Assembly (NCBI GenBank): GCA_947039455.1
Contig: CAMQZB010000001.1
Span: 79,877 to 143,876, forward strand
Source: an uncultured Clostridia bacterium
Lineage (GTDB): Bacteria > Bacillota > Clostridia > Christensenellales > CAMQZB01
DNA length: 64,000 nt
Reading direction: 5' to 3'
A program made the position numbers and the translations under genes. The notes below the pieces were generated by a model. The model saw only the letters and a list, made by a program, of their open reading frames with translations, had not been told where the DNA came from and did not search any database. Positions within the stretch are counted from its first letter, which is position 1. Each line of letters opens with the position of its first letter. Shown here piece by piece: positions 11,274 through 63,460 of the stretch.

Positions 11274-11349
11274 GGGAGCTTAGCTCAGTTGGGAGAGCAT
11301 CTGCCTTACAAGCAGAGGGTCACAGGTTCGAGCCCTGTAGCTCCCACCA
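11274..11349 (+). tRNA. tRNA-Val (anticodon UAC), copy 1
   Basis: Cloverleaf folded by hand: acceptor gggagct/agctccc, anticodon stem tctgc/gcaga, loop cTTACAa, T-loop ttcgagc, encoded CCA. Confidence 0.9.
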
Positions 11350-11392
11350 TTATCGTGCAACAACTTAATACAAAATTAAATTAATTTGGTGA

Positions 11393-11468
11393 GGGAGCTT
11401 AGCTCAGTTGGGAGAGCATCTGCCTTACAAGCAGAGGGTCACAGGTTCGAGCCCTGTAGCTCCCACCA
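11393..11468 (+). tRNA. tRNA-Val (UAC), copy 2
   Basis: Identical to copy 1, offset by 119 nt. Confidence 0.9.
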
Positions 11469-11511
11469 TTATCGTGCAACAACTTAATACAAAATTAAAT
11501 TAATTTGGTGA

Positions 11512-11587
11512 GGGAGCTTAGCTCAGTTGGGAGAGCATCTGCCTTACAAGCAGAGGGTCACAGGTTCGAGCCCTGTAGCTCCCACCA
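11512..11587 (+). tRNA. tRNA-Val (UAC), copy 3
   Basis: Identical to copy 1, offset by 238 nt. Confidence 0.9.
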
Positions 11588-11606
11588 TTATTTAATTTTG
11601 AATTAT

Positions 11607-11681
11607 GCGGGAGTGGCTCAGTGGTAGAGCGTCGCCTTGCCAAGGCGAATGTCGCGGGTCCGAATCCCGTCTCCCGCTCCA
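11607..11681 (+). tRNA. tRNA-Gly (anticodon GCC)
   Basis: Acceptor gcgggag/ctcccgc, anticodon stem tcgcc/ggcga, loop tTGCCaa, encoded CCA. The T-loop reads TCCGAAT (C at the usual U55 position). Confidence 0.85.
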
Positions 11682-35917: not shown

Positions 35918-36000
35918 ATAATAATAATAGTAATAATATTGAATTAAATACCCAACTACTCACCCAACAACACAGCAACAAAAATCACCATACATAAAGC

Positions 36001-36050
36001 GGGTCAAGGGGCTCGCCCCTTGTTGGGGCATGGGGCAAACAGCCCCATTT
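36001..36050 (+). repeat. GC-rich twin-hairpin core, copy A
   Basis: gggtCAAGGGGCtcGCCCCTTGttggggcaTGGGGCaaacaGCCCCAttt. It differs from copy B only at two loop positions. Confidence 0.85.
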
Positions 36051-36084
36051 TATAACGAACCAACCAAACCAAACTAAACAAAAA

Positions 36085-47745: not shown

Positions 47746-47795
47746 AACAACATAAAATTTGTACAGTATTATAAAATATGTCGAAATATAAGGAA

Positions 47796-47826
47796 AATTA
47801 GTGGTTTTTGCCACTAATTTTTTTTA
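47796..47826 (+). terminator. sleB-ypeB terminator
   Basis: Stem aattagtgg/ccactaatt followed by an 8-T run. Confidence 0.85.
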
Positions 47827-47892
47827 TGCTTTACAACCAAAGAAAATTAGTGTATAATATTATATAATAAATAAAAAAGTAGGAGTAGAAAG

Positions 47893-48312
47893 TTGAGAGA
47901 AGCGAAGATTACAATAAAAACTAAAGACGATTTCAATGAAACCGAGATAATATTATACGGAGAAAGCTGGACCGAAGGTGACACGCAGTTTTTAGTGTAT
48001 GTTGACAAGTCGCAAGAAGACAAAACCAACAAAACGGTGATTGCATTTGACGATAATTCTCTATCCTATCAAAAATACGGCAAGTACAATATGGAGTTAA
48101 ATTTTGAAATAAACAATAAGTTAAATTTCCCGCTAGAAACGGAGTATGGAACAATGGCGGTGGAGCTTTCCACAAAGAAATTAGTAATTGAAAGAACAGA
48201 AAAAGGTGCAAATATAGATATAGATTACACCCTGATATTTTCAGAAACACAAGGTGTAAATTACAGTATAAATATAGAATTCAAGTATGTTTTAAGTAAG
48301 GAGATGATATGA
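47893..48312 (+). CDS. DUF1934-like (YwiB-like) beta-barrel protein
   Basis: 139 aa, TTG start after RBS aggag. The sequence pattern is compatible with DUF1934. Its stop overlaps the rho-like start (ATGA). Confidence 0.55.
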   Translation: MREAKITIKTKDDFNETEIILYGESWTEGDTQFLVYVDKSQEDKTNKTVIAFDDNSLSYQKYGKYNMELNFEINNKLNFPLETEYGTMAVELSTKKLVIERTEKGANIDIDYTLIFSETQGVNYSINIEFKYVLSKEMI

Positions 48313-49832
48313 TTGATCAAAAATTAGATGAAGGGGCAAAGCACTATCAAGATATACGAAAATTGTTTGATAATTATATAATCACTGAAGAAAATTTGAA
48401 AGTAATGACGATTTATAACCTACGAGCATTGGCATTTGGAGCAAAAATACAAGCTGCAGTAACAATGAAAAAAGAAGTAGTAATTGATGCGTTGCTTGAG
48501 TTCGGAAAAGGAAATACAGCGGTCTACATTCCAAGTACAAAGAAAGGAAAACCGCCTGAAATGGGCTCTAATTTTTATCCTGCCATAGAGCGTTTAAAGG
48601 AAAAAAATCAGTTAATTCCTATTAAAAAAGTAAACGTAAACGATATATTGAGTGATAGCGTTGGTGGATTTACCAATGATATTTTTCAAGAAACAAAAGA
48701 CGGAGAAAGTATAATCGAGGGTGGAATTTTAGAGATAATGCCTGATGATTTTGGATATTTACGTGGTGGAAATTACGGCTCAAAATACAGTGAAATATAC
48801 GTTTCTTCTAACATAATTAATAACCTTTTCATAAGAAATGGTGATTATGTAAAAGGTGAAGTAATTAAAAATGCAAACAACAAAGACTGTTTGAAAAACG
48901 TAATAGAAGTAAACGGAAAACCAGTAACTGATTGCTATAATCGATTAAATTTTGAAGATTTAGTTGCAGTTTTCCCTAAAGAAAAATTTCAATTATCTAG
49001 TGAAGAAAACAATGAAATGGAGTTAAGATTAATTGATTTATTTTGTCCAATAGGAAAAGGGCAACGTGGAATAATCGCAACACCTCCAAAAACTGACCCA
49101 ACAACGATTTTAAAAAGCGTATCAAAAGCTATGGTGCAAAACAATAGCAACGTGAAAGTTTTGATGTTGTTAATAGGTCAACGCCCAGAAGAAGTAACGG
49201 ACATCAAAGAATCGGTTGACGCGGAAGTGTTTTTTACAACATTTGACGATGTATGTGAGGAACAAATAGCGGTGGCGGAAACGGTTTTATCACATGGAAA
49301 ACGCCTTGTAGAAAGCGGTTATGACGTGGTAATTATGATAGACAGCATCACAAAATTAGTGAAAGCGTATAATAATGTATCATATACTTCAAGCCGAACT
49401 ATGAATGGTGAGCTTGAAGTGAATGCACTTGAAGTACCGAAAAAATTCTTTGGTTCAGCTAGAAACATCAAAAACCAAGGCAGTTTTACAATTCTTGCCA
49501 CAGCGGAAGTTGAAACGGGAAACCGAATGGACGATATGATTTACCATGAATTTATTGCGTCAGGAAATATGGAATTGCGACTTGATAGAACCTTAGCTGA
49601 AAATAGAATTTTCCCAAGCATAAATTGCGAAAAATCCTATACAATGAAAGACGATTTATTGTTAACAAAAGAGCAGTTAGACGTACAGTATTCTATTAGA
49701 AAAACATTCACATCACAAACTATCCTAGATGACACCATTTTATTAATAGACATGGTTGGAAAAACAAAAACAAACCATGAATTTATAGAAAAGTACCCAT
49801 CTTTAGTAAAGATTAAAAGCCACAACAACTAA
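48309..49832 (+). CDS. rho: Rho-family protein with degenerate ATPase motifs
   Basis: Rho_N-like helices, a CSD-like RNA-binding domain (DFGYLRG, EIYVS) and a RecA-type domain (VVIMIDSITKLVKAYN, NALEVPKKFFGSARN, GNMELRLDR). The P-loop reads TPPKTDPT instead of APPKAGKT. Confidence 0.85.
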   Translation: MIDQKLDEGAKHYQDIRKLFDNYIITEENLKVMTIYNLRALAFGAKIQAAVTMKKEVVIDALLEFGKGNTAVYIPSTKKGKPPEMGSNFYPAIERLKEKNQLIPIKKVNVNDILSDSVGGFTNDIFQETKDGESIIEGGILEIMPDDFGYLRGGNYGSKYSEIYVSSNIINNLFIRNGDYVKGEVIKNANNKDCLKNVIEVNGKPVTDCYNRLNFEDLVAVFPKEKFQLSSEENNEMELRLIDLFCPIGKGQRGIIATPPKTDPTTILKSVSKAMVQNNSNVKVLMLLIGQRPEEVTDIKESVDAEVFFTTFDDVCEEQIAVAETVLSHGKRLVESGYDVVIMIDSITKLVKAYNNVSYTSSRTMNGELEVNALEVPKKFFGSARNIKNQGSFTILATAEVETGNRMDDMIYHEFIASGNMELRLDRTLAENRIFPSINCEKSYTMKDDLLLTKEQLDVQYSIRKTFTSQTILDDTILLIDMVGKTKTNHEFIEKYPSLVKIKSHNN

Positions 49833-49876
49833 AATTCAAAAACCTAAAAAAGACCCAAAAAACACTAAAATAGCAA

Positions 49877-49929
49877 AAAACCGTTATTTACGATTGACTT
49901 AAATTCAATCAAAATAACGGTTTTTTTTA
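49877..49929 (+). terminator. rho-like gene terminator
   Basis: Stem aaaccgttattt/aaataacggttt followed by a T-run. Confidence 0.7.
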
Positions 49930-50066
49930 TATAATTATAAAAATATTTCACAATAAATTATAAAGGGAATATTCATAAATAAATAGCAAATAATATTTCA
50001 AAACTTCCTAGAAGTCCAAAGAAATTATTAAAGTAAGATTACAATCTAGCAGAAAGTTCAAAAGAG

Positions 50067-52948: not shown

Positions 52949-53113
52949 CACTAATAAAGTATAAAACACAAAAAAAGTGCAATAATTAACCTATATAAGA
53001 CAAAGACGGCGGAACAAATCAAAACACAAAATAAAACACCCACCAAAAATTATCCCCATAACCAAACCCAACTCAAACCACAACCCAACAAAAAACACTT
53101 AGAACAAAAAAGA

Positions 53114-53164
53114 GGGTCAAGGGGCTCAGCCCCTTGTTGGGGCATGGGGCAAATAGCCCCATTT
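53114..53164 (+). repeat. GC-rich twin-hairpin core, copy B
   Basis: gggtCAAGGGGCtcaGCCCCTTGttggggcaTGGGGCaaataGCCCCAttt. Confidence 0.85.
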
Positions 53165-53218
53165 AACTCACCTAAAAAAATCCAAAACCCCCCAGAACTT
53201 ACCTAAAAAACAAAAACA

Positions 53219-56694: not shown

Positions 56695-57735
<1,041 letters not shown>

Positions 57736-57785: not shown

Positions 57786-57830
57786 CGCAAAAATTCAAAG
57801 AAAAACAAACAAACTTACCCAACCCCAACC

Positions 57831-58005
57831 CCAATCAACCCACAAATAAACCACCAAACACAATCCCAACCAACTCACAAATAAACCACCAAACACAATC
57901 CCAACCAACTCACAAATAAACCACCAAACACAACCCCAACCAACCCACAAATAAAACAACCAATACAACTCCAACCAACCCACAAATAAAACAACCAATA
58001 CAACT
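57831..58005 (+). repeat. 35-nt tandem repeat, 5 full units (a sixth, degenerate unit follows)
   Basis: Unit ccaaccaa(c/t)(c/t)cacaaataaa(c/a)ca(c/a)c(c/a)aa(c/t)acaa(t/c)(c/t)c. Units 2/3 are nearly identical and units 4/5 are identical. Confidence 0.9.
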
Positions 58006-58150
58006 CCAACCAATCCACAAAAAAAATATCAAACCCAAATAGGAACCAACACCCATACTAAAACTACACCCAAAACCAATTAAGAAACGTTTCCACCCAA
58101 AGTGGAAACCAACCCATCCAAATGAAAACCTCACCATAAGTAAACCCAAC

Positions 58151-58206
58151 GGGGTCTTGGGGTATCACCCCAAGTGGTTGGGGTCTGGGGAGTCCCAAAT
58201 TCCCAG
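58151..58206 (+). repeat. GC-rich twin-hairpin core, diverged copy C
   Basis: ggggtCTTGGGGTatcACCCCAAGtggttggggtcTGGGgagtCCCAaattccca has the same architecture as copies A and B. Confidence 0.6.
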
Positions 58207-58447
58207 TGGTTTTGCAACTTTTGCCACCCAAAAGTTGACCGCGTGCGGAACACAAAAACCAAGTTGAAAAACATACATCTTACAACTTAATTAAATCCCC
58301 CCAACCAAACCACTAAAAAAAAAACTACCAAACCAATCCAACCACTAAAAAAACAAAAAAAACTATTTTAACCAAAATAAAGGAAATACTAATAAACATA
58401 GCGTATAATTTATATGAAGGCTAGTTTTGAATTTTGGAGAAAACCAT

Positions 58448-61272: not shown

Positions 61273-62331
61273 ATGGGAAATGAATTCGTAGAAAATTTGA
61301 AGAAAGAGCTAGTGGAAACCTACCGAAAAGTAGGTGCAATCACGTCAGAGGAATTATTTGATAAACTTGAAAAGCATCAAATAACACCTGAAGAATTGGA
61401 GGGCATTTATAAAGCCCTTGAAGAGAACCGAATTAGAATTACTGACATAGATTTGTCCGAAAAACAGATGCATGATATTGAAACAATGTCAACAACTGCC
61501 TCAATGGACGACCCTGTGAAAATGTATCTAAAAGACATTGGTTCAATTCCGCTATTAACTTTTGAAGAAGAAGTAGAGCTGTCAAAACGTATGCTTGAAG
61601 GGGATGAGATTGCTAAAAAAGCATTGTCGGAGTCCAATTTGAGATTAGTGGTATCGATAGCAAAAAGGTATTTAGGGCGTGGTATGCAATTTTTGGATTT
61701 AATCCAAGAAGGCAATCTAGGTCTGATGAAAGCTGTAGAAAAATTCGATTATACAAAAGGATTTAAGTTCAGCACCTATGCAACATGGTGGATTAGGCAA
61801 TCAATAACACGTTCAATTGCCGACCAAGCAAGAACAATCAGAATACCAGTCCACATGGTAGAAACTATCAACAGACAAGCGAAAGCGATACGTTCATTAC
61901 TGCAAGATTTAGGCAGAGAACCAACAATTTATGAAATCGCCGAGAGATTAAATGTGTCGGTGGAAAAAGTGTTGGAAATCAAAAAAATATCCCTTGACCC
62001 AATATCATTAGAAACGCCAATCGGCACAGAAGATGATACGCATTTAGGCGATTTTATCGAAGACGACACAGCAAAAGATCCGTCAGTAGCAATTACTTCG
62101 GAAACATTGCGTGACGAATTTAATAGAGTACTTGGAACATTGACTCCAAGAGAAGAAAAAGTAATTAGATTAAGATACGGACTTGACGACGGCAAGCCAA
62201 AAACTTTAGAGGAAGTAGGACGAGCGTTCAACGTGACACGTGAGCGGATACGTCAAATAGAATCGAAAGCTTTACGAAAACTTCGTCACCCAAGTCGCAA
62301 TCAAAAACTAAGCGAATTGGGAATGAAATAG
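61273..62331 (+). CDS. sigA: group-1 RNA polymerase sigma-70 factor, copy 1
   Basis: Regions 1.2 ([11 protein letters not shown]), 2 ([30 protein letters not shown]), 3 and 4.2 ([21 protein letters not shown]). Confidence 0.9.
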
Positions 62332-62371: not shown

Positions 62372-63460
62372 ATGAGTGTAGAAAACGTAGATGTAGCCAA
62401 ACTAGAAGGGGTAATAGCCCTTGTAGAAGAAGGTAAAAAGAGTGGAACGATTAAGTCTGAAGAGATATTTGATCGACTGGAAAAAGTTGAATTGTCACCT
62501 GATAAATTGGACGAGATATATGCAATATTCGAAGAAAACGGCATAAAAATCATTGATAATATAGACATGATCAAACAGGTAGCAGCTGAACCTGCACCGA
62601 ATGCGTCATTCGAGTTATACAACGATGACCTAGGAATGAATGACCCTGTAAAATTGTATTTAAAAGACATAGGAAAAGTACAATTACTATCAGCAGAAAG
62701 AGAAGTAGACCTAGCGAAACGTATGCTTGATGGCGACGACATGGCGAAACAAATACTAGCAGAAGCCAACTTGCGTTTGGTAGTGTCAATTGCAAAAAGG
62801 TATGTTGGACGTGGCTTGATGTTACTTGATTTAATACAAGAAGGCAACATGGGTTTGATGAAAGCAATCGAGAAATTCGACTATACAAAAGGCTTCAAAT
62901 TCAGTACATACGCAACATGGTGGATAAGACAATCAATCACAAGAGCGATAGCCGATCAAGCAAGAACAATCCGTGTACCAGTTCACATGGTAGAAACAAT
63001 TAACAGAAAAACAAGAGCAACAAGAGTGCTTTTGCAAAAACTTGGACGTGAACCTACAATGGAAGAAATAGCTGAAGAAATGGGTGTATCAGTGGAAAAA
63101 GTGTTTGAAATCCAAAGAATAGCACTTGATCCAGTATCATTAGAAACGCCAATCGGCGAAGAAGACGATACTCACTTAGGTGATTTTATCGAAGACGAAA
63201 ACGCTATTGCCCCAACAACTCAAGTAGCAAATTCATTGTTAAAAGAGAAGTTGATAAACGTGTTATCATCATTGACACCACGTGAAGAAAAGGTAATAAG
63301 ATTAAGATACGGACTTGACGATGGAAAGCCAAAAACATTGGAAGAAGTGGGCAAGGAGTTTAACGTAACACGAGAGAGAATTAGACAAATCGAAGCAAAA
63401 GCTTTGAGAAAATTACGTCATCCAAAAAGAAGCACGCAAATTAAGGACTTTATTGACTAA
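62372..63460 (+). CDS. group-1-like RNA polymerase sigma-70 factor, copy 2 (tandem paralogue)
   Basis: Same region structure as copy 1. The DNA-recognition helices are the same apart from S/A substitutions ([32 protein letters not shown]). The N-terminus and region 3 have diverged. Confidence 0.9.

Follow-up and report, generated by a model that had tools for sequence, protein, structure and literature searches.

A full-length Rho homologue with substituted catalytic residues, a predicted pseudo-ATPase maintained by purifying selection in an uncultured Clostridia bacterium

Rho is the classic example of an RNA translocase in the form of a ring. What, then, might keep a rho gene intact when the residues that power this motor have been replaced? 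The question is raised by an open reading frame (ORF) on a 64,000-nucleotide stretch of DNA (hereafter: the window) from an uncultured, spore-forming Clostridia bacterium (contig CAMQZB010000001.1 of assembly GCA_947039455.1). The ORF (positions 48309-49832, + strand; 1,524 nt, ATG start) encodes a catalytically degenerate Rho homologue of 507 amino acids, which an earlier note had proposed to be an RNA-binding pseudo-enzyme. Judged by its sequence, the window Rho is a genuine full-length Rho homologue in which the residues that are known to power ATP hydrolysis are all missing; it would be a natural Rho pseudo-ATPase unlike any reported Rho, and new in this respect. Every natural Rho described so far, second copies included, keeps the ATPase motifs, and a survey of 2,730 genomes published in 2024 found these motifs to be highly conserved, with only the conservative substitution K184R in five species (PMC11347177).

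Two full-length Rho hidden Markov models (HMMs) differ in their verdict on the protein. It scores 422.9 bits on the NCBIfam model NF006886, above the cutoff of 315, but 398.8 bits on the stricter TIGR00767, below the cutoff of 509.45. It carries the Pfam domains Rho_RNA_bind (PF07497; amino acids 139-205, 57.1 bits against a cutoff of 27, E=1.6e-15) and ATP-synt_ab (PF00006; amino acids 239-444, 88.6 bits against a cutoff of 29.5). In a phmmer search of all Protein Data Bank (PDB) sequences the top matches were solely Rho proteins (E about 1e-84; E. coli 8q3q and 1pv4). An AlphaFold2 (AF2) model has a predicted local distance difference test score (pLDDT) of 81, mostly above 90 in the C-terminal ATPase domain, and when this model was compared with Foldseek the top 50 PDB matches were all Rho, with target-normalised template modelling (TM) scores of 0.81-0.94 and, for the best matches, root-mean-square deviations of 2.1-2.9 Å over about 365 aligned columns. 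In domain order and predicted fold the window Rho matches canonical Rho (E. coli, PDB 1PV4/3ICE; clostridial Rho with an N-terminal insertion, the 'Type 2' of Moreira et al., 2024).

The N-terminal extension (48309-48698, + strand) consists of Rho_N-like helices (amino acids 1-70) and an insertion modeled with low confidence (amino acids 71-130). The NF006886 alignment begins at amino acid 27, the helices of the AF2 model span residues 27-66, and pLDDT values fall below 50 at residues 70-79 and 106-130. Neither the window Rho nor its nearest canonical relatives give a match to Pfam Rho_N (PF07498), for the window Rho at E<=0.01. The OB-fold primary RNA-binding domain follows (48723-48923, + strand; amino acids 139-205). 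Of its primary-site residues, F62, R66 and Y80 (like K184, E211, R366 and similar residue numbers below, these follow E. coli Rho as aligned) are kept, while F64Y and D78E are conservative changes.

It is in the ATPase domain that the protein departs from its family. A phmmer alignment with E. coli Rho, in a single register, pairs PPKAGKT with PPKTDPT, LLIDERPEEV with LLIGQRPEEV, and SGTRKEE with SYTMKDD; a MAFFT alignment of E. coli Rho with 120 homologues makes the same assignments (G183D, K184P, D210G, E211Q, R366M), in agreement with those first made by eye in the earlier note. The degenerate Walker A motif (49077-49103, + strand) reads ATPPKTDPT as compared with the canonical APPKAGKT (G183D, K184P), and the underlying DNA is in frame throughout (gca aca cct cca aaa act gac cca aca). 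The segment around the catalytic glutamate (49170-49193, + strand) has become LIGQRPEE instead of LIDERPEE (D210G, E211Q) with the Arg valve R212 retained, and in the Arg-finger segment SYTMKDD (49635-49655, + strand; codon for M446 at 49644-49646) G364Y accompanies R366M. Walker B, VIMIDSITKL (49329-49358, + strand), keeps D265 and shows R269K. An alternative register that would place an intact GK[ST] P-loop or the catalytic glutamate elsewhere was considered and excluded, since HMMER, MAFFT and the NCBIfam model are concordant.

The secondary RNA-binding site is affected as well. The Q-loop, SYTSSRTMNGELE (49380-49418, + strand), is degenerate (G282S, L285M, S/T286N, G288E, D290E), and the R-loop ETGNRMD (49512-49532, + strand) carries S325N; G282S, S/T286N, G288E, D290E and S325N all fall in columns that are 96-100% conserved in the relatives. 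The anomaly which the earlier note had seen in these loops, arginine in place of lysine at positions 283 and 326, does not stand: most canonical clostridial Rhos have arginine there (K326R in 101 of 149), and both K283R and K326R are the normal clostridial condition. Further changes in the ATPase domain are K336I/G337A/T338S, H239Q and L320E, whereas K181, T185, R212, D265 and the NALxxPKKFFGSARN segment are kept. In comparison with canonical Rho, the Walker A Gly-Lys pair, D210, E211, R366, Q-loop residues G282/S286/G288 and R-loop residue S325 have thus all been replaced.

How exceptional these changes are can be judged from 118 alignment columns in which conservation among 119 canonical relatives reaches 95% or more. 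Thirty-three of these near-invariant columns are altered in the window Rho, compared with at most 9 (median 0) in the canonical proteins and 11 in E. coli Rho. All but two of the 33 lie in the C-terminal ATPase domain; the OB domain contributes two of its nine (F64Y and D78E). Likewise, the ATPase domain is 41% identical to that of E. coli, as against 53-63% for every canonical relative, and has evolved much faster than in any of the 119, while the divergence of the OB domain from E. coli is inside the canonical range. In 149 further diverse Rho representatives G183, K184, T185, E211, R212, D265, G288 and R366 are invariant, and G183, K184, E211 and R366 are so in all 268 other Rhos inspected, none of which shows the degenerate state of the window Rho. 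An exhaustive phmmer search of 1.84 billion representatives for other members or intermediate forms yielded solely P0001, an allele described below, and no related locus was found in GTDB species genomes. The motif IGQRPEEVT gave one chance match over GTDB genomes, in a non-Rho ORF of an Acidiferrales metagenome-assembled genome, and none over JGI metagenomes, where a clade-specific N-terminal alignment retrieved one distant relative (35% identity) and nothing else. Full-text searching of the literature turned up no paper on a degenerate Rho; in a 2025 review, 'catalytically inactive' denotes the open-ring conformation of normal Rho and not a degenerate protein (PMC12360218).

Could the unusual residues be errors of sequencing or assembly, or the product of a frameshift? 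At 90% identity the cluster comprises three alleles: P0270, the window sequence itself, which is on record in NCBI and ENA on four contigs (the longest of 407,512 bp); P0271, with 4 differences; and P0001, with 22. The catalytic changes are common to all three alleles, found in different samples on at least six contigs, and the 507-codon ORFs are intact in each, which excludes both kinds of error and confirms that no frameshift is involved. DNA from two other samples (L001 and L012) shows the same gene order as the window.

The alleles also allow one to ask whether selection still acts on the gene. Their pairwise ratios of nonsynonymous to synonymous substitution rates (dN/dS), calculated according to Nei and Gojobori, are 0.11, 0.18 and 0.19, values that exclude a neutral pseudogene; neutrality is rejected in all three pairs (P = 2e-4, 1.5e-8 and 7e-10) and for the N- and C-terminal domains separately. 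The OB domain has the lowest dN/dS, 0.08, as compared with 0.20 for the N-terminal and 0.19 for the C-terminal domain; these values are similar to those of the neighboring genes (0.03-0.26). Purifying selection on an intact ORF is what one expects of a pseudo-enzyme and not of a decaying gene, and together with the loss of the catalytic motifs it agrees with the pseudo-enzyme proposal. A sceptic might nevertheless view the gene as a relic, inactivated in a group where Rho is dispensable and by now without function, its ORF merely not yet disrupted. Indeed, Rho is absent from 30.4% of Bacillota (PMC11347177), and under laboratory conditions Bacillota can do without it (PMC12360218). Moreover, the old catalytic segments keep changing among the alleles, Walker A being ATPLKTDAT in P0001 (P260L, P264A; K184A) and the Arg-finger segment SNTMKDD in P0271 (Y444N), and the dN/dS of rho lies above that of the neighboring PALP gene (0.03-0.06). 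Allele variation in these segments fits the loss of their former job; an enrichment of within-lineage variation in the old catalytic motifs was not significant (4 of 24 variable positions; hypergeometric P=0.25). A relic is, however, hard to reconcile with the rejection of neutrality in every pair and in both terminal domains, with the absence of any stop codon or frameshift from 1,524 nt in any allele although about 28% of the near-invariant positions have changed, and with the preserved Shine-Dalgarno/ATGA junction in front of the gene. We regard it as distinctly improbable.

Is the degenerate protein the genome's former housekeeping Rho or a derived extra copy? The gene is preceded by one for a DUF1934 (YwiB-like) protein (47893-48312, + strand; 139 amino acids, TTG start behind AGGAG; PF09148, E=4.6e-18), and NCBI and ENA assemblies contain this exact DUF1934 protein. 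At the junction (48298-48312, + strand), AAGGAG (48298-48303) precedes the rho ATG (48309-48311), which overlaps the DUF1934 TGA (48310-48312). DUF1934 orthologues are found upstream of rho in L003-L007, L009 and L012. The canonical Rhos most similar to the window Rho (L003-L006) are encoded in the arrangement DUF1934 - Lactamase_B_3 - rho, so that canonical Rho of related Clostridia shares the DUF1934-linked locus. Two closer lineages, L007 and L009, were found when the DUF1934 protein, instead of Rho, served as the query. In L007 the gene order is NTP_transferase, a 78-amino-acid ORF, SpoIIR, SleB, YpeB, an extracytoplasmic function (ECF) sigma factor with a 465-amino-acid gene, DUF1934 and rho, which is the window locus plus one inserted cassette. 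The L007 rho is cut off by the contig end after 288 codons, and within these it has the canonical GYGFLR, DIYV and APPKAGKTT motifs. The unusual N-terminal architecture of the window Rho is common to L007 and L009, and the AAGGAG-N5-ATGA junction is identical in L012, L007 and L009.

Given the common locus, junction and N-terminal architecture, the window gene is an orthologue of housekeeping rho; since the L007 Rho has a canonical P-loop, the catalytic degeneration came after this lineage and L007 had separated. The window Rho is therefore a positional orthologue of the housekeeping rho that degenerated recently, on a terminal branch. Between the window and L007, the five flanking genes are 70-84% identical at the amino acid level, DUF1934 60%, and Rho 52% over residues 1-288; dN is 0.34-0.41 for Rho as against 0.10-0.22 for its neighbors. 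Among relatives at large, Rho identity jumps from 96% to at most 49%, whereas that of leucyl-tRNA synthetase is graded (89, 79, 78, 75, 70% and so on). Because L007 has the same ATGA junction, coupling to DUF1934 pre-dates the degeneration. The overlap that suggested translational coupling to the earlier note is thus real; being ancestral, and preceding a Rho with a canonical P-loop as well, it is nothing specific to the dead protein.

Orthology bears directly on a second explanation, in which a canonical Rho is encoded elsewhere in the genome and the dead copy acts as its modulator, either by forming mixed hexamers or by competing for rut RNA, RNA polymerase or NusG, with a dominant-negative or tuning effect. 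Rho is a hexamer whose ATP sites lie where two subunits meet, so a ring that takes up dead subunits could be poisoned or tuned by them. The interface-forming C-terminal domain is still under purifying selection (dN/dS 0.19), only 64 kb have been seen of a genome with a 407,512-bp contig, and hetero-hexamers have been discussed for species with two rho genes (PMC11347177). Yet the dead gene sits at the ancestral housekeeping locus, and among about 15 billion proteins, those of its own genome included, no canonical Rho exceeds 49% identity to its product; the lack of a close canonical paralogue in a collection that covers this genome means that there is no recent duplicate. Furthermore, two rho genes in one genome are mainly a feature of Actinomycetota and PVC bacteria, and in such second copies the catalytic residues are intact (PMC11347177). 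Such Rho2 paralogues ('Group B'/Type 4; NF041509 paralog_Rho2 for the short form) are likewise atypical members of the family for which hetero-hexamers have been proposed, but they have no N-terminal domain, whereas the window Rho is full-length, degenerate and placed at the primary rho locus, and scores 338 bits on NF041509 against a cutoff of 628. On balance, we consider a modulator unlikely.

What might a Rho of this kind still do? With the Walker A Gly-Lys, the catalytic glutamate and the Arg finger gone, it would have lost ATP binding and hydrolysis, and with its degenerate Q- and R-loops it would have lost the grip on RNA in the central channel; action as a translocase or terminator motor is for these reasons very probably impossible. 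Engineered Rhos hit at the same positions, the catalytic glutamate and the Arg finger, provide a precedent. E. coli R366A and D265N show greatly reduced ATP hydrolysis with RNA binding unaffected, and M. tuberculosis Rho with a mutated catalytic glutamate neither hydrolyzes ATP nor unwinds or terminates (PMC5379054). As a class, these dead proteins (E. coli R366A and D265N; M. tuberculosis E386A, R541A and D440N) keep RNA binding and lose ATPase, helicase and termination activity, and none of them supports growth (PMC5379054). They are, however, single laboratory substitutions that fail where Rho is essential, while the window Rho carries many natural substitutions and is maintained by selection. 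Its OB-fold primary RNA-binding domain, the part under the strongest purifying selection, would bind C-rich single-stranded RNA through the primary site, probably in an oligomeric state and without translocating.

One might also imagine a non-canonical nucleoside triphosphatase that works with, for example, K181, T185, R212 and D265. These residues are conserved, the last two as Arg valve and Walker B aspartate, and catalytic residues of pseudoenzymes have sometimes 'migrated' (PMC10211241). Nevertheless, G183D introduces a negative charge into the phosphate-binding loop, K184P or K184A removes the Walker lysine, and the P-loop segment is not even conserved among the alleles. The catalytic glutamate and the Arg finger are gone too, and either change on its own suffices to inactivate the Rho of E. 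coli or M. tuberculosis (PMC5379054). Residual activity of this sort strikes us as very improbable indeed.

A counterpart to the window Rho exists among the RecA/F1-type rings, namely F1 alpha and V1 B, whose ATPase fold is homologous to its own. In F1 alpha the catalytic glutamate has become glutamine, the same change as E211Q, and inactive subunits are kept in these rings for structural or regulatory roles. F1 alpha has an intact GKT P-loop, binds nucleotide and always pairs with a catalytic partner; the window Rho, by comparison, has a destroyed P-loop and no partner known, and its HMM scores to the F1 and V1 families are far below the cutoffs.

The explanation that we favor, and consider reasonably probable, is that a motor-dead rho orthologue has been retained for a role that needs no ATP, the most plausible one being that a Rho-shaped oligomer binds RNA through its primary site. 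Several points weigh against it. The ex-P-loop and ex-Arg-finger segments are still drifting among the alleles, and a dN/dS of about 0.2 is only moderate constraint for a housekeeping protein that is usually highly conserved. F64Y and D78E are changes at primary-site positions that are invariant in 119 of 119 relatives, so that RNA binding could be altered or weakened. RNA binding and oligomerization are predicted for the protein, and its expression is suggested by sequence signals. As the alignment from which the AF2 model was built consists of canonical Rhos, a Rho fold would have been reproduced regardless. The lineage is very narrow, amounting to one species-level cluster, and with 64 kb of the genome visible a second canonical rho, and hence another role, may exist outside the window.

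The flanking signals suggest how the gene is read. Upstream of DUF1934 lies a putative sigma-70-type promoter (47830-47858, + strand; TTTACA-17-TATAAT, 11 of 12 consensus matches), the best match of a consensus scan in the region. Downstream of rho, a long hairpin followed by a U-run (49870-49932, + strand) resembles an intrinsic terminator; its predicted RNA fold has -20.8 kcal/mol and a z of -8.3, and none of 200 shuffles was as stable. The rho product would be made from a bicistronic DUF1934-rho transcript through translational coupling. SpoIIR, SleB and YpeB are indeed encoded upstream, as confirmed by Pfam, but the sporulation role that the earlier note had derived from them rests on adjacency and is not supported. 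A terminator-like hairpin (47794-47821; 11-bp stem, aaaattagtggtttttgccactaatttttttt), flagged on the - strand by a terminator scan but followed by a T-run on the + strand too, and the promoter-like site separate ypeB from DUF1934; in L007 the ECF-sigma cassette is inserted at this very point, and in other relatives (L003-L006) the upstream genes are unrelated.

The cassette of the ECF sigma factor and the 465-amino-acid gene lies between ypeB and DUF1934 both in L007 (7959-9873) and in L009 (1-1098). Across adjacent genes, identity between L007 and L009 falls from 93% to 75% and then 53%: the 465-amino-acid gene is 93% identical with a dS of 0.06, whereas dS is about 1.5 for the adjacent DUF1934 and rho genes. 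Diversifying selection on DUF1934-rho was considered for this pair and dropped, as dS itself rises abruptly from 0.06 in the cassette to 1.5 in DUF1934-rho. This recombination boundary marks the cassette as a recent horizontal transfer, and the pattern is therefore not a property of Rho.

DUF1934 stands just upstream of rho in L003 (6983-9407), L004 (6987-9386), L005 (6968-9398), L007 (10001-11280), L009 (1254-2161) and the window (47893-49832). In these Clostridia the two genes either overlap directly in ATGA or have a Lactamase_B_3 hydrolase gene in between. No pertinent literature was found.

Might the window also hold candidate RNA ligands? The earlier note had pointed to long G-free, YC-rich tracts as ideal for the Rho primary site. 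Long G-free tracts on the + strand are real, with 241 nt (57801-58041), 115 nt (58267-58381) and 89 nt (53013-53101) as compared with a longest tract of 75 nt in 200 shuffles, and YC dinucleotides are raised in them (13-20 per 100 nt; 6.2 window-wide); however, they are A/C-rich rather than pyrimidine-rich, the longest consisting of 54% A and 38% C. This tract is made of about 5.9 tandem copies of a 35-nt unit, CCAAACACAACCCCAACCAACCCACAAATAAACCA (91% matches), and is located in a gap of ~690 nt between gap (GAPDH, 56704-57735) and a dGTPase-like/dnaG/sigA operon (from 58427). A G-rich element of ~55 nt, GGGTCAAGGGGCTC(A)GCCCCTTGTTGGGGCATGGGGCAAAYAGCCCCATTT, occurs in three intergenic copies (36000-36052, 53108-53168 and 58148-58215), each of them bordered by G-free sequence that is rich in A and C. 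Its predicted fold consists of two or three short GC hairpins (-28.5 kcal/mol; z about -3.2 for two copies); the element has no credible match in Rfam and may be a genome-specific repeat or a small RNA. G-free tracts and G-rich hairpins form one repeated intergenic element.

The sole connection between these tracts and the window Rho is the preference of the Rho primary site for C-rich, G-poor RNA, and to link them is pure speculation. Carried to its end, this thought would make the window Rho the sole Rho of its host, an ATP-independent RNA-binding ring that recognizes the unusual G-free A/C-rich intergenic tracts, the 241-nt array in front of the dgt-like/dnaG/sigA operon among them, and controls transcription or the fate of RNA there, possibly together with the coupled DUF1934 protein, so that a motor-independent function of Rho alone sustains selection. 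We deem this far-reaching version a long shot.

Two other features of the window were noted in passing. Directly downstream of dnaG lie two tandem full-length genes for group-1-type sigma-70 factors (61273-62331 and 62372-63460), both with regions 1.1 to 4, which look like a duplicated primary sigma factor. Four tandem tRNA genes are present at 11274-11678 with a spacing of ~119 nt; to judge from their equal Rfam scores, the first three are probably identical copies.

A motor-dead Rho that is kept by selection suggests that Rho has a job for which its motor is not needed. If our favored explanation, an ATP-independent role for this orthologue, is true, the window Rho would be a natural separation-of-function allele that could reveal motor-free roles of Rho, such as RNA binding, association with RNA polymerase or NusG, and scaffolding, and it would bear on the debate between motor-driven and 'stand-by' or allosteric models of termination. 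It would also represent a halfway state, with a fully functional Rho on one side and, on the other, the outright absence of Rho from about 30% of Bacillota. Finally, the conserved operon link with rho suggests a Rho-related role for DUF1934, and offers a first functional lead for this uncharacterized family.

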